From a virus: 64,000 nucleotides of DNA. Of the stretch, positions 56,642-62,585 are shown in pieces. Where the stretch lies: positions 94,492 through 158,491 of the IMG/VR virus record IMGVR_UViG_3300033182_000581; one strand, given 5' to 3'. The notes beneath the pieces were generated by a model. The model saw nothing but the letters and a program-made list of their open reading frames with translations, was not told the origin of the DNA and did no database searches. The first letter of the stretch is position 1. Each line of letters begins with the position of its first letter. The position numbers and the translations under genes are program-made.

Positions 56642-57595
56642 ATGGAAGATAGACTCATTACTTTACTGGAATCTGTCTTAGGTAAATCTAAGAAAACATC
56701 AGGTGATAACTATGCGTTTTACTCTCCGTTTGTAGAACATTACAAACCAAAGTTGGAGATAAATGTTGCATTGAACTCATTAGGTGAGAACCCCTGGCAT
56801 TGTTGGGTATCTGATGAAAAGGGTAAAACAATACGTTCTCTTTTTAGAAAACTCAAAGTATCAAAAGATGTTTGGGAAGAACACAACTCTATTTTCAGTA
56901 GAAAGTATAGATATCGGAACGACCAAGCTACCGACCAAGCTACCGACCAAGCTACCGACCAAGTTGTACAACTTCCAAAAGAATACATCCCACTTTGGAA
57001 ACCATCCAACTCAGTAATCAGAAAACATGCATTACGATATCTAAATGATAGAGGGGTAACCCCATCTGAAATTATAAAGTATGAGGTTGGATATTGTGAA
57101 GAGGGTATATACAAACACAAAGTAATTGTACCATCATATGATAAAGATGCAAGATTAAATTATTTTGTAGGTAGAAGTTTTTATGATGGTGGTTTCAAAC
57201 ACAAAAATCCTGATGTATCGAAAGATGTAATTGGGTTTGAGATGTTTATAAATTGGGAATGTGATATAACCATTGTTGAAGGTAGTTTTGATGCAATGGC
57301 AATACGAATGAACGCAATACCATTATTTGGTAAATCAATCCAATCTAAATTATATTCCAAAATTTTGGAAAAAAAACCACCTGCTGTGAATATATGTTTG
57401 GATACCGATGCTCGGCAAAATGCACTTAAACTTGCTGAAAATTTTATAAATAATGATATATGTGTTAGATTAATAGAATTACCCGATAATCGTGATGCAT
57501 CTGAACTTGGATTTGATGTAATACAGGATTTAATTAAAAATACAAAACTTACTACATTTTCTGACATAATTCGTATGAAAATTGGGAATATCTAA
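56642..57595 (+). CDS. DNA primase (TOPRIM)
   Basis: N-terminal zinc-finger-like region (WHCWVS), IVEGSFDA, ICLDTDA. Confidence 0.85.
   Translation: MEDRLITLLESVLGKSKKTSGDNYAFYSPFVEHYKPKLEINVALNSLGENPWHCWVSDEKGKTIRSLFRKLKVSKDVWEEHNSIFSRKYRYRNDQATDQATDQATDQVVQLPKEYIPLWKPSNSVIRKHALRYLNDRGVTPSEIIKYEVGYCEEGIYKHKVIVPSYDKDARLNYFVGRSFYDGGFKHKNPDVSKDVIGFEMFINWECDITIVEGSFDAMAIRMNAIPLFGKSIQSKLYSKILEKKPPAVNICLDTDARQNALKLAENFINNDICVRLIELPDNRDASELGFDVIQDLIKNTKLTTFSDIIRMKIGNI
56920..56963 (+). repeat. 12-bp in-frame tandem repeat (about 3.7 copies)
   Basis: CGACCAAGCTAC repeats encoding DQAT in the primase linker. Confidence 0.92.
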
Positions 57596-57620
57596 TATTT
57601 ATATGTGAAGGGGTATAATT

Positions 57621-58460
57621 ATGAATGAATATAACAGAATTTGTAATCAATGTGGTAATACAATTATATATAAGACAAAATCACAATTTAATAATGCTGA
57701 AAAACATAATAGGATATGTAAGCGATGTGCTAATGTAAATCGTAATAAAGATAGAACTATACCACATCCAGATGTATTAACTAAAAGATGTAATCAATGT
57801 GGTAAGGAGCATGAATTTTCATCAAAAGTTAAATATATTCAGTCAAAACCAACTGAAAAATATTTATGTAAATCATGTGCTGTTAAAAAAGCACATACTG
57901 GTAAAACTATGTCGGAACAAACTAAATATGATATTGGTACTAAGGTTAAATCAGCATGGGGACGTGGTTGTTATGAATACGCTACAAAATGTTCTAGTGA
58001 AAGATGGTCTGGTGAAAATAATCCAATGTATAATTCTAATAGAACTGGTTCGTTAAATCCATTCTATAAAAAAACACATACGGATGATACCATACAAACT
58101 ATTATTAGCAAAAACACCAACCCATCAAACGAAACTCGCCTAAAAATGCGTAAATCCGCTATTGCTAGAATACAGTTGGGTGAAAATGGTGAAATGATAC
58201 CATCATACAACCCATCTTCAATACCAATCATAGAGGCAAAAGCAAGAGAATTGGGTATAACCGATTTACAGCATGCTGAAAACGGTGGTGAATACCACAT
58301 AAAAGAACTTGGATATTGGGTCGATGGATACAGTAAAGAAAAAAACATAGTAATAGAATATTATGAACCACATCACAAACGGCAAGTTGAAAAAGATAAA
58401 CGAAGGGAAAGTGAAATTACAGAATATTTGGGATGTAAATTCATAATAATTAAAGAATAA
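57621..58460 (+). CDS. free-standing homing endonuclease (zinc ribbons, NUMOD3-like repeats, PD-(D/E)XK/Vsr-like C-terminus)
   Basis: CNQC..CKRC twice, HTGKTMSEQTK, GSLNPFYKKTH, YWVDGY...VIEYYEPHH. Confidence 0.75.
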   Translation: MNEYNRICNQCGNTIIYKTKSQFNNAEKHNRICKRCANVNRNKDRTIPHPDVLTKRCNQCGKEHEFSSKVKYIQSKPTEKYLCKSCAVKKAHTGKTMSEQTKYDIGTKVKSAWGRGCYEYATKCSSERWSGENNPMYNSNRTGSLNPFYKKTHTDDTIQTIISKNTNPSNETRLKMRKSAIARIQLGENGEMIPSYNPSSIPIIEAKARELGITDLQHAENGGEYHIKELGYWVDGYSKEKNIVIEYYEPHHKRQVEKDKRRESEITEYLGCKFIIIKE

Positions 58461-58463
58461 TGT

Positions 58464-59165
58464 ATGAGAAAAGCAAAATTGATTAAGTATGATGGTAAAA
58501 TCAAAAAGATTTACCACATTGCTGATGTTCATATCAGAAATTTAAAAAGACATACTGAATATAGAGAAGTTTTCGAACGATTATATCAGTATATTGAAAA
58601 TACAAAAACGGATGATTCGGTAATCGTATTAGCAGGTGATATTGTTCACGCTAAAACCGATATGACACCAGAAGTGATTGAGATGACTCAAACATTTCTA
58701 AAAAGATTATCGGATATGTTACCTACAATCTTAATACCAGGTAACCACGATGCAAATCTAAATAATCATTCGAGGTTGGATGCGTTATCACCAATTGTTA
58801 ACGCATTAAATCATCCAAACCTACACTATCTTAAAAATGATGGTGTATGGAAAATGGGTGGAATTTCCTTTTCTCACTCTTCGATTTTTTCCGAATCAAA
58901 AGGAATCATTCCTGCGTCCGATGTGAGTGGGGATTATAAGATTGCATTATATCATGCTCCTGTTGATAAAGTAAAGACTGAGCACGGGTTTGAGATTGAA
59001 AACAAAAATGTGAATGTAGAATCATTTGATGGATATGATTTAGTTTTGTTAGGTGATATTCACGTTCCAAATCAATGTTTGCAGGAATTTCAAATTGAAA
59101 CGATGGAAATTGATGAGAGTGAATTGGAAGAATATCTAAAAAATGGATGGGAAATTTGTGAATAA
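58464..59165 (+). CDS. sbcD: SbcD/Mre11 nuclease, N-terminal piece
   Basis: ADVH, AGDIVH, PGNHD, YHAP, LGDIH; stops about 35 aa after motif V. Confidence 0.9.
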   Translation: MRKAKLIKYDGKIKKIYHIADVHIRNLKRHTEYREVFERLYQYIENTKTDDSVIVLAGDIVHAKTDMTPEVIEMTQTFLKRLSDMLPTILIPGNHDANLNNHSRLDALSPIVNALNHPNLHYLKNDGVWKMGGISFSHSSIFSESKGIIPASDVSGDYKIALYHAPVDKVKTEHGFEIENKNVNVESFDGYDLVLLGDIHVPNQCLQEFQIETMEIDESELEEYLKNGWEICE

Positions 59166-59230
59166 TCTTAGTGGTTTTGTATAATCGTAGATACTTATAT
59201 ATGGTTATACAAAATCAAAAGGAGATATAT

Positions 59231-60022
59231 ATGGCAAAGCGAAGAGCTAAATGGGTTGATAGGAATTGTGAGTATTGTAATACTAAATTTGAAATTAAAG
59301 AAAGTTCATTAAAATATGGTAGGGGTCGTTTTTGTAGCAGAATGTGTTCTGATAAGGCTAAGACTACCATAACGGGTAGTAACCATTATAACTTTGGTAA
59401 TAAGCATACAGATGAATGGAAATCTAAACGAAGTATCGAAACAAGAAAATTATGGGAAGATGATGATTATGTGAAAAAAGTAAAAGAAGGCCGTGATAGA
59501 TTTGTAAAACAGAATGGTTATCATCCTGGCACAGATGCACATTCCAAATCTAAAAGAAAAAATACAATGGTAGAGTTATACGGAATTGAACATAATTGGA
59601 ATGGTGAATATGGTAATCGTAGTTGTGATATTACTTGTGAGAACTTATATGGTAAATCTAGCATACAACTACGATTATCAGCATCAATGTCTGAAGAATC
59701 TGTTGAATCTCGTAGAAAAACCCTAATAGAAACCATATCAGGAGTTTCATATGATGAATGGGAATCTACAAAAACTGAGAAAGAATTATATTACAAAGAA
59801 GTATGGAGATATACAAGAAAACAAAATATTGAATTATTAGAAAATTACGAAAAACGTGCAAGAGCTGGTGAACCTGATGCATATCATTTAGACCACATAA
59901 TACCAATAATATATGGGTTTTATAACAATATACCAGCCGATGTTATTGGTGATATAGCAAACTTACAATTCATACCCGCATCTGATAACTGTTCAAAAAG
60001 CTGGAAATATGAAAAAGATTAA
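59231..60022 (+). CDS. free-standing HNH homing endonuclease inserted in sbcD
   Basis: CEYC..FCSRMC zinc ribbon, GSNHYNFGNKH, YHLDHIIP...NLQFIPASDNCSK; AAGGAG RBS before ATG 59231. Confidence 0.85.
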   Translation: MAKRRAKWVDRNCEYCNTKFEIKESSLKYGRGRFCSRMCSDKAKTTITGSNHYNFGNKHTDEWKSKRSIETRKLWEDDDYVKKVKEGRDRFVKQNGYHPGTDAHSKSKRKNTMVELYGIEHNWNGEYGNRSCDITCENLYGKSSIQLRLSASMSEESVESRRKTLIETISGVSYDEWESTKTEKELYYKEVWRYTRKQNIELLENYEKRARAGEPDAYHLDHIIPIIYGFYNNIPADVIGDIANLQFIPASDNCSKSWKYEKD

Positions 60023-62585
60023 AATACAAAGAAAAAAACCCAAAATTTCATATGTGGGTTCAACCATTATGCAAAATCACTCTGAAGCAAAATATCCTGA
60101 ACATGGTATTTTGGTATGGGATGTTGAAACGAAAGAATCTGAATTTGTTCCTATTCATAACGATTATGGGTATGTTACTGTTGATGTAGAAGATGGTAAG
60201 ATAGTTGGTACACCAAACATACCAAACAAACCACGTATGAGAGTTCGGGTAAAGAACACATCTCAATCAGCACTTAAAAAGGTTTTAGCAGAAATCAGAG
60301 TTGGTAGAAAAGTACAAGAGGTATCAATCCAAAAAGTAATTACTGATAAAAAAGATTTCGATGGTAGTTCTAATATTGTTTTACAAAATGTAAGAGATGT
60401 TGGATTCCAAAACAAATTGATTGAAGATTTCTTATCCGAAAGATATGTGGTGGGTGAAGAACATTTAGAAGTAATCCGAAATATCAACAATGATATCAAT
60501 CAGAAATTGGGAACATCAGTTGGTATGAAGAATATTATTTGGAAACCTAAAACATTTGAGTTCTCAAATATGTTTTCATATGGTACTAAGAATATAATTG
60601 ATTTTACCAATATGAAAGGTGCATATGGAATCTTCGCACCAAACGCTAGTGGTAAATCATCTCTATGGGATGCACTATCATTTTGTATTTACGATAAGTG
60701 TTCTCGTACCTCAAAGGCAATTGATGTATTAAATTACTCAAAGATGAGTTTCGATTGTAAATTTAACTTTGAAATTGAGGGAGTAGATTACTTTATCGAA
60801 AGGGTTGGTAAGAAATCACCTAAGAGGGGAACTGTTAAAGTAGATGTAAACTTCTATCGAATCAATGAAGATGGCTCTACTGAATCCTTAAATGGTGAAG
60901 AACGTAGAGATACAAACTCAATCATCAGACAATATGTTGGTTCATATGATGATTTTATTCTAACTGCAATGTCAAACCAATCTAATAGTGGTGGGTTCAT
61001 TGAGAAATCACAAAAAGAAAGAAAAGAACTTCTTGCTCAATTCTTAGACATGGATGTATTCGAACAATTGTATCAAGTGGCAAATGAAGAAATTAAAGAG
61101 TTAAGTGGTTTACTTAAAGATTATAAAAATCAAAACTTTACTGAGAAGTTATCTGATGCAGAAGAAAGTTTGATTGAAAATAAAAAGAATGTATCTAAAA
61201 CTCAAAAGTTATTAGATGAGTACAAACTGAAAAGAGTAGAGGTGGCCACTCAAATTGAAAGTTTATTATCACAACTAATTTCAGTAAATTCCGAAATAAT
61301 TGATACTGATAAGTTAATAGAAACAAAATCTGAATTAGAAGAACTTGCCAACATAAAGGCAACTGAGTGTAATGGTTATGTGGATACACTTGTTGATTTA
61401 GAATCTAAACTAAAACAAACCAAATCAGAGTTTGATAGGTATGATTTGATAGATTTAAAAGAGAAACATCTAAGGTACGAATCGCATGTTGCGATGGTGG
61501 AAGATATCAAAGACCAGATGGAAGATTTGGAAAGAGAAATTGAACATAAGAAAGAACACTTAGAGGGCATTGGTTCTCTTACATTTGATGATGGGTGTGA
61601 ACATTGTGTAAAGAATAAGAACACACCATTTGCACAGCAGGCACAATCATTAGAAAAAGAAATTAAAGAATTATCACTTATTTATTTGACTCGTTCTGGT
61701 GAATATGATGAAGCATCAATTAACAAAATAAAGTATGATGTTACAAATATTTTAAAAGAAGTTCAGATTTTAAAAACACAAATAACAGAATACGAATCTC
61801 AAATTGAAAAAGTAGAACTTCAAACAAAATCATGTAATTTAGAATTAACTGAACTACAAGGTAAGATTGAAAAAGTAGAATCTGACATCAAAAAATCAAT
61901 CGAACAAAAAGAATCGGTAGAGCATAATACAAAGATACAAAAAGAAATTGATAAATACAAAGAAAATTTAAAAGAAATTGAAGATTTAATATATGAAACT
62001 AATGATATCTTAATTGATGTTAGTGGTGAGGTTAAGATAGCAGAAAATACAATCAAAATGGTAAACGATTCTATTCAACGATTAGAAGATATGGAAACTA
62101 AGTATGAGGGGTATGAATATTATCTACAATGTGTAAAGCGGGATGGAATCCCATACGAACTAATTTCAGATGTTTTACCTAAATTAGAAATTGAGATAAA
62201 TAATATTCTACAACCATTAGTTGATTTCCAAATCCTATTGAATACTGATGGAAAGAACATCAATTCATATATTGCGTATGGCGATGATGAATTTTGGCCT
62301 TTAGAATTGACAAGTGGTATGGAGAAGTTTATTTCATCAGTAGCAATTAGAACTGCACTTACAAATGTATCGAATCTACCACGTCCAAACTTTATAGCAA
62401 TTGATGAAGGATTTGGTTCATTAGATAGTGATAACTTTAATTCATTATATTTATTATTTGATTACCTAAAAAACCAATTTGATTTCTTAGTAACTATATC
62501 ACACATTGATAAGACAAGGGATATGGTTGACCAAATCATAGATATCACAAAGGTGGGTGGATTTTCATCTATTAGATATTTATAA
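60009..62585 (+). CDS. sbcC: SbcD C-terminal piece fused to SbcC/Rad50 ATPase
   Basis: ISYVGSTIMQNHSE..HGILVWD (SbcD C-terminus); Walker A APNASGKS, zinc hook CEHC, signature LTSGMEK, Walker B FIAIDEGFGSLD. Confidence 0.9.
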   Translation: MKKIKIQRKKPKISYVGSTIMQNHSEAKYPEHGILVWDVETKESEFVPIHNDYGYVTVDVEDGKIVGTPNIPNKPRMRVRVKNTSQSALKKVLAEIRVGRKVQEVSIQKVITDKKDFDGSSNIVLQNVRDVGFQNKLIEDFLSERYVVGEEHLEVIRNINNDINQKLGTSVGMKNIIWKPKTFEFSNMFSYGTKNIIDFTNMKGAYGIFAPNASGKSSLWDALSFCIYDKCSRTSKAIDVLNYSKMSFDCKFNFEIEGVDYFIERVGKKSPKRGTVKVDVNFYRINEDGSTESLNGEERRDTNSIIRQYVGSYDDFILTAMSNQSNSGGFIEKSQKERKELLAQFLDMDVFEQLYQVANEEIKELSGLLKDYKNQNFTEKLSDAEESLIENKKNVSKTQKLLDEYKLKRVEVATQIESLLSQLISVNSEIIDTDKLIETKSELEELANIKATECNGYVDTLVDLESKLKQTKSEFDRYDLIDLKEKHLRYESHVAMVEDIKDQMEDLEREIEHKKEHLEGIGSLTFDDGCEHCVKNKNTPFAQQAQSLEKEIKELSLIYLTRSGEYDEASINKIKYDVTNILKEVQILKTQITEYESQIEKVELQTKSCNLELTELQGKIEKVESDIKKSIEQKESVEHNTKIQKEIDKYKENLKEIEDLIYETNDILIDVSGEVKIAENTIKMVNDSIQRLEDMETKYEGYEYYLQCVKRDGIPYELISDVLPKLEIEINNILQPLVDFQILLNTDGKNINSYIAYGDDEFWPLELTSGMEKFISSVAIRTALTNVSNLPRPNFIAIDEGFGSLDSDNFNSLYLLFDYLKNQFDFLVTISHIDKTRDMVDQIIDITKVGGFSSIRYL

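Follow-up and report, generated by a model that had tools for sequence, protein, structure and literature searches.

A phage gene for a single-chain Mre11-Rad50 (SbcD-SbcC) protein has probably been split by a mobile cassette with a free-standing homing endonuclease gene (HEG). According to sequence comparisons and structure models, this is best explained by two separately made polypeptides which reassemble without splicing. The locus covers positions 58464-62585 of a 64,000 nucleotide stretch of viral DNA, called the window (positions 94,492 to 158,491 of the 169 kb IMG/VR virus record IMGVR_UViG_3300033182_000581). Three open reading frames (ORFs) are located here on the plus strand: an N-piece with the phosphoesterase core of Mre11, the HEG, and a C-piece which contains the rest of Mre11 followed by a complete Rad50 ATPase (Table 1).

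Family matches place the N-piece among calcineurin-like phosphoesterases of the SbcD/Mre11 kind (Pfam Metallophos, 3e-13; phrog_100 'SbcD-like'). All five motifs are present, i.e. I, ADVH (aa 20-23); II, GDIVH (58-62); III, GNHD (93-96); IV, LYHAP (162-166) and V, GDIH (197-200), in which Asp replaces the first His of the usual GHxH. The C-piece starts with MKKIKIQRKKPKI (net charge +7), continues with SYVGSTIMQNH and matched phrog_77 'SbcC-like' (3e-53), AAA_23 (2e-12) and SMC_N. Walker A (aa 211-218), a coiled coil with a CxxC zinc hook (CEHC, 530-533), the signature TSGMEK (768-773), Walker B (FIAIDEG, 795-801) and the H-loop (829-834), which together characterize Rad50/SbcC proteins, were all found. 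The first-pass annotation, made from the sequence alone, had described the three ORFs, both motif sets and the acidic and basic ends at the break correctly; its 14-nt overlap between the HEG, which stops at 60022, and the start of the C-piece was also confirmed. In the window, N- and C-piece are in the same reading frame and 843 nt apart, and the genome contains only one copy of the Mre11-Rad50 gene. The same split was seen in at least nine independent assemblies (JGI, ENA, Logan, GenBank). Therefore, it is not an assembly artefact.

The uninterrupted state had been predicted to be an SbcD-SbcC fusion, and such fusions were found. P0004 on contig L004 is a single 1057-aa protein in the same gene order. 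The N-piece is 97% identical to its aa 1-207 and the C-piece 96% identical to aa 210-1057. At the DNA level L004 shares 95% identity with the window right to both cassette edges (flanks, 92-99%), and the neighbors are as in the window, a Laminin_G protein, endonuclease I and primase. Alignment with L004 defined the cassette: 87 nt coding for the acidic tail of the N-piece, TAA, a 65-nt leader, the HEG and 48 nt for the basic head of the C-piece. Its insertion point lies after motif V (GDIH) and before the next Mre11 core strand (YxGS). The 32 nt which it replaces code for a short hairpin between GDIHVPNQ and GSTIMQNH; the intact allele of the window lineage has a 10-residue hairpin at this place and no acidic tail. 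In three of four independent metagenomes contigs joined 59076 to 60057 via the exact 32-nt filler, and the HEG was covered in none of the four. Because of L004 and these junctions we consider the cassette an optional insertion and the intact allele as the commoner one. Likewise, among near-identical genomes the HEG is optional at this one site, being absent from L004 and the metagenome contigs, present in L095 and truncated in L007.

Searching with the C-piece protein, we obtained 4,871 metagenomic relatives, the closest 96% identical and 1057 aa long. More than 100 of the best 120 are SbcD-SbcC fusions, mostly of 1056-1057 aa with a phosphoesterase domain. Contiguous fusions of 1066 and 1202 aa are also encoded by Microcystis phage Mel-JY01, which is in culture, and by the uncultured phage LR756501, respectively. 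When IMG/VR was scanned with the N-piece, matches in the best 80 of 400 loci ended without exception at residue ~206-215, before the tail is reached; hence these loci are of the intact type. A scan of IMG/VR with the tail alignment yielded no confirmed locus, possibly a limit of tblastn confirmation with 37 aa. Judged by these sequences, a large phage family with thousands of metagenomic members natively encodes a single chain in which an N-terminal Mre11 is followed by Rad50. In our literature searches neither natural fusions of this kind in phages nor Mel-JY01 turned up as the subject of a paper.

The split relatives form a series at a single site. L095 has a full HEG, 86% identical to that of the window. 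In L007 a 566-nt deletion left a stump of the first 87 HEG codons. L005/L006 are split without a HEG; 29 nt lie between the 233-aa and 858-aa ORFs, in a frame different from that in the window, and the gap of L005 retains the first bases of the HEG leader. L094 is also HEG-less, with 40 nt between the pieces. Lineages of 45-52% identity are split at the same point as well; there L092 has a homologous HNH-family gene and LR756508 a TnsA-like nuclease gene instead. At the same distance, L088 has a 173-nt spacer without HEG, and L090/P0124 a bare TAATG stop/start overlap (-4 nt), again without HEG. In the L088 spacer (1139-1311) we noted a palindrome, TTGTATATTTATATACAA, which resembles the stem of the hairpin in the window HEG leader and perhaps derives from a HEG that has since disappeared. 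In every split locus both ORFs are unbroken and the C-piece opens with its own ATG.

The first-pass annotation had suggested examining whether HEG-less alleles are contiguous, since relatives already split at the same point would speak against a fracture by the HEG. L004 is contiguous, whereas L005/L006, L094, L088 and L090 are already split. Taken literally, the latter contradict the proposal; yet these alleles look like derivatives which lost the HEG. For the window clade this is indicated by the L007 stump and the leader bases in L005. The HEG-less split alleles speak for a split which works without the HEG, and they are no argument against an origin by a HEG.

How could the two pieces find each other? 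The junction alignment revealed three colinear allele classes: the short hairpin, which is the majority, a contiguous insert of ~45 aa, and this same insert, always broken at one and the same place. The contiguous insert-bearing fusions P0133, P0150, P0192 and P0254 (1085-1099 aa) emerged from an exhaustive N-piece search; here the match extends through the complete acidic tail and beyond it. P0133, a 45%-identical relative, served to examine the fold of the nuclease core and capping domain in place of the window's two chains. An AlphaFold2 (AF2) model of its aa 1-400 (pLDDT 91) matched the Mre11/SbcD structures 4hd0, 7dog, 1ii7 and 6s6v with E values of 1e-12 to 5e-14. In the model the insert consists of a strand at 211-218, a helix at 219-227 and two further strands at 231-236 and 239-246. 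The position of the break in split alleles is equivalent to the turn at 237-238, the last beta-hairpin turn of the insert. Accordingly, a strand-helix-strand-strand mini-domain of ~45 aa is modelled of which tail and head contribute one half each. The tail positions E, M, ExEL, YL and GW are conserved in split alleles down to 45% identity. The earlier notion that an ancestral fusion was fractured within a small acidic/basic insert is thus supported by the contiguous insert-bearing fusions and the modelled turn, but not for the window lineage, the intact allele of which is insert-less.

Next, binding of the two chains was predicted. The N-piece combined with C-piece residues 1-175 scored 0.94 compared to 0.00 for the best control; such a score is attained by 51 of 78 solved complexes and by 2 of 108 mismatched pairs, and it may in part be a memory of the solved Mre11 fold, of which the chains are halves of one domain. 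The predicted interface includes tail residues 188-232 and head residues 1-20. The re-association of the halves which the first-pass annotation had envisaged is in line with this prediction.

Oppositely charged strands are also a feature of split inteins (PMC2677866). Tail and head might be a degenerate or atypically short split intein which ligates the pieces by protein trans-splicing. The gene order, N-part, free-standing HEG and C-part with a 3' overlap, is that of genes fractured at split inteins, the tail starts with Cys in the window clade, and true LAGLIDADG inteins exist elsewhere in the same gene of relatives. However, both halves total ~45 aa, far below the size of a HINT domain. Other split alleles begin the tail with V, T or I, and a terminal His-Asn in front of Cys/Ser/Thr is lacking. 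In addition, contiguous relatives retain the insert in a confidently folded mature protein. Pfam had no intein match at the locus, and Dassa et al. scored an SbcD-like case as intein-less (PMC2677866). Because of the size, the unconserved junction residues and the contiguous homologues the intein was rejected; we see hardly any chance for it.

Equally remote is a removal of the interruption at the level of RNA or the ribosome, i.e. a group I/II intron, translational bypassing or frameshifting, which would result in a single polypeptide. The common frame of both pieces in the window would allow this, and in T4 gene 60 bypassing reportedly occurs alongside a HEG insertion (bioRxiv 10.1101/2022.08.31.505936). 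Yet an Rfam scan of 57400-60600 with E up to 10 did not match any intron model and gave only three sRNA/miRNA matches at chance level, while tail and head are conserved as protein. On these grounds an intron was rejected. As for recoding, the interruption of 843 nt in the window contrasts with 29 (in another frame), 40, 173 or -4 nt in relatives. Because gap length and relative frame vary from allele to allele, no single recoding device fits, and bypassing or readthrough was dismissed as well. Furthermore, the C-piece always has its own ATG start. The Rfam result also agrees with the earlier claim that the gap has no ribozyme; the accompanying claim that the HEG fills the whole gap has to be modified because the likely HEG start leaves the leader of 65 nt.

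We then asked how the cassette is distributed. In a tree of 842 shared columns the five split alleles of the window clade are each found in a different, well-supported group of intact alleles. Family-wide the split state requires at least nine changes. The window is 97% identical to the intact P0004, and the split P0045 is 99% identical to the intact P0054. L094 equals the intact P0054 up to GD and then has the six-codon flank LHMPDQ of the L005-type cassette; in sequence terms this flank, common to L094 and L005, is a short co-conversion tract. In the same genome pairs synonymous divergence (dS) was 0.26-0.64 in tail plus head and 0.74-2.6 in the flanking gene, i.e. 2-4 times lower in the cassette, and the ratio of nonsynonymous to synonymous divergence (dN/dS) of the cassette was mostly ~0.2; both estimates are from only 44 codons. 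Because at least five intact clades contain nested split alleles and dS is lower in the cassette, we conclude that the cassette moves laterally; it was gained or lost in at least five different backbones. The insert halves entered the window lineage together with the cassette by this route, and the cassette, insert halves included, is under purifying selection.

Selection bears on the question whether we are dealing with a pair of pseudogenes, i.e. whether insertion of the HEG recently killed Mre11-Rad50 and the phage tolerates the loss. Phage recombination nucleases are dispensable under some conditions, the split allele is the minority form and the break is within the catalytic domain. Nevertheless, both ORFs are full length in at least nine split loci on backbones of 45% to 99% identity, including loci whose loss of the HEG is old enough for them to have diverged since. 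Tail and head are under purifying selection, as far as codon comparisons tell, and are conserved across distant lineages; moreover, the pieces are predicted to bind. There are precedents as well: the split NrdA of Aeh1 reportedly yields a functional enzyme, and for phage 25 co-purification of the two gp43 parts is reported. Thus, a dead gene is very unlikely.

The likely start of the HEG is ATG 59231, preceded by an AGGAG Shine-Dalgarno sequence, rather than GTG 59171. The 65-nt leader is folded into a strong, conserved hairpin (RNA folding, -22.7 kcal/mol, z = -5.5), which is also present in L007 and L095. Its outer stem pairs the bases directly after the N-piece stop with part of the AGGAG (59220-59224). 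The predicted protein has CxxC...CSxxC zinc-finger-like and NUMOD3-like modules at the N-terminus and a C-terminal nuclease domain with an HNH motif. The HNH label of the first-pass annotation is backed by YHLDHIIP...NL.FIP..DN..K, invariant in the alignment of the HEG family, and by HNH clusters among the language-model neighbors (0.88-0.90). On the other hand, Pfam HNH models did not match the HEG, Pfam also failed with the last 62 aa, and a sequence search of the PDB was without a match. The AF2 model from a 9-sequence alignment (pLDDT 60, nuclease domain <50) was too poor for a fold search.

Other nuclease domains are used in this family, too. In P0280 the alignment shows a window-type HEG N-terminus fused to a Vsr-like C-terminus, and the nuclease gene of LR756508 (L002 2748-3665) codes for a TnsA-like PD-(D/E)xK enzyme which has only the zinc-finger module in common with the window HEG. 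The zinc finger and helical N-region are thus joined to an HNH-motif, a Vsr-like or a TnsA-like PD-(D/E)xK domain, and P0280 in particular indicates swapping of nuclease domains on a HEG scaffold. A scan for promoters and terminators gave counts not above those in shuffled sequences. A single TTGTGA-18-TATAAT site was noted at 59156-59185, across the end of the tail. No RNA sequencing run was found to contain the locus.

Did a HEG cause the split at all? Conceivably, fission came first: an insert-bearing fusion split spontaneously in the hairpin turn, with a stop/start as in the TAATG allele, and HEGs settled there later. The cassette in the window would then be a pre-split module that gained a HEG. 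HEG-less split alleles exist on several very different backbones, and L090/P0124 with its TAATG is sister to the contiguous, insert-bearing P0133. Free-standing HEGs usually settle in intergenic gaps, and the order of split and HEG has been questioned in the same way for Aeromonas phage 25 and its gene 43A/43B (PMC2988022). In the window clade, however, the HEG-less gaps hold remnants of the HEG leader and L007 a stump, i.e. loss is the direction which is seen. Two unrelated nuclease types, HNH and TnsA/Vsr-like, in the same gap also speak for prior fission; yet because both nuclease genes share the N-terminal zinc-finger module and P0280 shows a domain swap, one HEG lineage with domain shuffling accounts for both. 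For the window itself the question does not arise because the whole cassette entered an insert-less backbone laterally. Taken together, we consider prior fission improbable, though the least improbable of the alternatives.

The reading we consider likely is that of a cassette which fractured a single-chain phage Mre11-Rad50 into genes-in-pieces. A working model would be as follows. The HEG would cut intact alleles, and repair would copy the cassette in (homing); indirect evidence for this comes from the polyphyletic distribution of split alleles, the short co-converted flanks and the lower dS of the cassette. N- and C-ORFs would be translated separately, with the start of the C-piece coupled to or overlapping the HEG stop, while the leader hairpin would sequester the ribosome-binding site of the HEG and restrain its translation. 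The polypeptides would then rejoin non-covalently by strand complementation, aided by their opposite charges, into an active Mre11-Rad50; neither RNA nor protein splicing would take part. More tentatively, the ~45-aa insert could be a portable 'adaptor' of the selfish cassette, its charged halves zipping the enzyme pieces together as a non-covalent counterpart of a split intein. This we regard as possible, yet rather doubtful. If true, the element could colonize the Mre11 catalytic core in many backbones. The adaptor would outlast loss of the HEG and could be re-fused; the contiguous insert-bearing proteins would be scars of past invasions.

Several points weigh against the genes-in-pieces reading. 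Separate translation, reassembly and enzyme activity are steps which we infer, as is cleavage of the intact allele by the HEG. In view of the HEG-less split alleles, a HEG is only the presumed maker of the first split. Its HNH assignment derives from the motif, missed by Pfam and located in a poorly modelled domain. Split alleles are ~4% of the close relatives, the intact form dominates in the metagenomes examined and in databases, and as a minority the split form could bear a cost. Finally, 44 codons are few for the rates above, and a memory effect would lessen the value of the complex score.

Table 1. Features of the split Mre11-Rad50 locus in the window (positions of the window).
Feature	Position	Strand	Size	Description	Basis
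N-piece ORF	58464-59165	+	233 aa	Mre11/SbcD phosphoesterase core	ORF list, Pfam Metallophos, phrog_100
Whole cassette	59077-60056	+	980 nt	replaces 32 nt of intact allele	DNA alignment with L004
Acidic tail, cassette-borne	59076-59162	+	29 aa	net charge -9; modelled strand, helix and strand of insert mini-domain	DNA and junction alignments, conserved positions, AF2 secondary structure of a contiguous homologue
HEG leader RNA hairpin	59165-59226	+		inner stem of 18 bp, 59172-59189 with 59200-59217	RNA folding
Free-standing HEG	59231-60022	+	263 aa	likely start at ATG 59231	phrog_5104, weak NUMOD3, family alignment, presence/absence among near-identical genomes
C-piece ORF	60009-62585	+	858 aa	basic head, rest of Mre11, complete Rad50/SbcC	
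Basic head, cassette-borne	60009-60047	+	13 aa	net charge +7; modelled last strand of insert mini-domain	
Rest of Mre11	60048-60533	+		last core strand SYVGS, capping domain, helical linker to Rad50	
Rad50/SbcC ATPase	60534-62582	+			motif positions, family matches
Walker A	60639-60662	+			
Zn hook CEHC	61596-61607	+			
Signature	62310-62327	+			
Walker B	62391-62411	+			
H-loop	62493-62510	+			

Some observations concern the surroundings. A second free-standing endonuclease-like gene (279 aa; 57621-58460, and 57353-58460) follows the primase and precedes the N-piece. Its features are Cys-pair modules, a NUMOD3 match (7e-6) and a weakly DUF559/Vsr-like C-terminus (E 0.01). L004 lacks the gene, as does a metagenome contig in which 57352 is joined to 58461. 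The primase equals that of L004 for ~230 residues, and in the last ~85 residues, beside the 279-aa gene, identity is ~45%; this drop looks like a co-conversion or mosaic boundary. At primase aa ~93-107 (56918-56960) DQAT is repeated three times in tandem; L004 has TDEA-type repeats with one unit fewer. The first-pass annotation had taken ATATTTAT for a late promoter. In the window 18 copies compare with 15.8 expected, which is not above chance. All 18 are on the plus strand and several are located just before genes (57595, 62576).

Elsewhere in the Mre11 part, the relatives P0183, P0134, P0174, P0182 and P0204 have an in-frame insertion of ~300 aa near motif III (GNHD). According to Pfam the insertion is an intein splicing domain in three of them, P0183, P0134 and P0174, with a LAGLIDADG endonuclease in P0183 and P0134, whereas no intein was recognized in P0182. 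An acidic tail of the split type is likewise present in P0183, P0134 and P0182. The Mre11-Rad50 gene is a repeated target of selfish elements.

In the common view HEGs persist because they reside in introns, inteins or intergenic DNA. The window HEG sits inside the catalytic domain of a recombination nuclease. At this one site the natural series is unusually complete, with intact, contiguous insert-bearing and split alleles, the latter with a HEG, with a decaying HEG or without one. With it, the tolerance of a protein to being cut becomes testable, as does the question whether a cassette carries its own re-association module. Structural work on the complex could also profit from Mre11-Rad50 that is a single chain by nature, or from Mre11 that is split by nature. 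The principle is not new because a fracture in the same gene family was reported in 2009 (PMC2677866). What is added are the HNH-motif endonuclease, the fusion to Rad50, the allele series and the structural reading from relatives.

In the 2009 study Dassa et al. (Nucleic Acids Res 37:2560) described an SbcD-like gene from Lake Gatun (GOS) that is fractured by a Vsr-like HEG and intein-less (PMC2677866). That locus has 25 extra C-terminal and 9 extra N-terminal residues at the fracture, and the 3' end of the HEG overlaps the downstream ORF (PMC2677866). It resembles the window in the gene family, the free-standing HEG between the halves, the lack of an intein and the 3' overlap. Compared by description only, the split is apparently at the same point. 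The extra residues are 29 and 13 in the window, and its HEG has an HNH motif in place of the Vsr-like nuclease. Dassa et al. dealt with one short metagenomic locus. Unlike here, neither a Rad50 fusion nor near-identical intact alleles were reported; states with a truncated HEG or without one, contiguous homologues with the insert and a structural reading are likewise absent from that study. LR756508 with its TnsA-like PD-(D/E)xK ORF looks like the same type as this locus.

The nrdA/mobE system of phage Aeh1 reportedly goes back to Friedrich et al. (2007, PNAS) and Gibb and Edgell (2007, J Bacteriol). The layout of the window is of the same type, one gene in relatives, two ORFs and a HEG here, without intron or intein. 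Genes-in-pieces generated by free-standing endonucleases are established for Aeh1 nrdA/mobE, T4 39/60/mobA and phage 25 gene 43 (PMC2988022). According to PMC2677866 and PMC2988022, in Aeh1 nrdA-a/mobE/nrdA-b an HNH-type HEG interrupts a critical region of the enzyme and the two polypeptides reassemble; similarly, a hairpin over the ribosome-binding site restrains translation of mobE and of HEGs in fractured genes (PMC2677866). The HNH-type HEG, assigned by motif in the window, a hairpin of this kind and the overlap of the HEG with the downstream piece are alike in both systems. The host enzyme differs, and NrdA function was proven biochemically, whereas we presume activity for the window proteins. 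Unlike Aeh1, the window cassette brings extra coding sequence, the halves of the mini-domain. T4 39/60 with mobA and phage 25 43A/43B with a seg-like HEG are comparable insofar as replication or recombination genes are split by or beside HEGs (PMC2988022). T4 gene 60 additionally uses translational bypassing, and for neither of these two systems were complementary peptide halves borne on a cassette described, as we propose for the window. Genes fractured at split inteins (gp41, NrdA, NrdJ, IMPDH, DnaE; PMC2677866) share the architecture of the locus and the oppositely charged, interacting strands. The window differs by the absence of intein blocks, an insert which is far too small and an association expected to be non-covalent. 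With canonical Mre11-Rad50, E. coli SbcCD and T4 gp47/gp46, it has in common motifs I-V, the capping domain, the ABC ATPase, the coiled coil and the Zn hook; the modelled fold matches PDB 6s6v, 4lty and 1ii7. Canonical motif V is GHxH as against GDIH in the window family. The canonical proteins are encoded by two genes, cut at a domain border, whereas the native form of the phage family is a single chain and the cut in the window is within the nuclease core.

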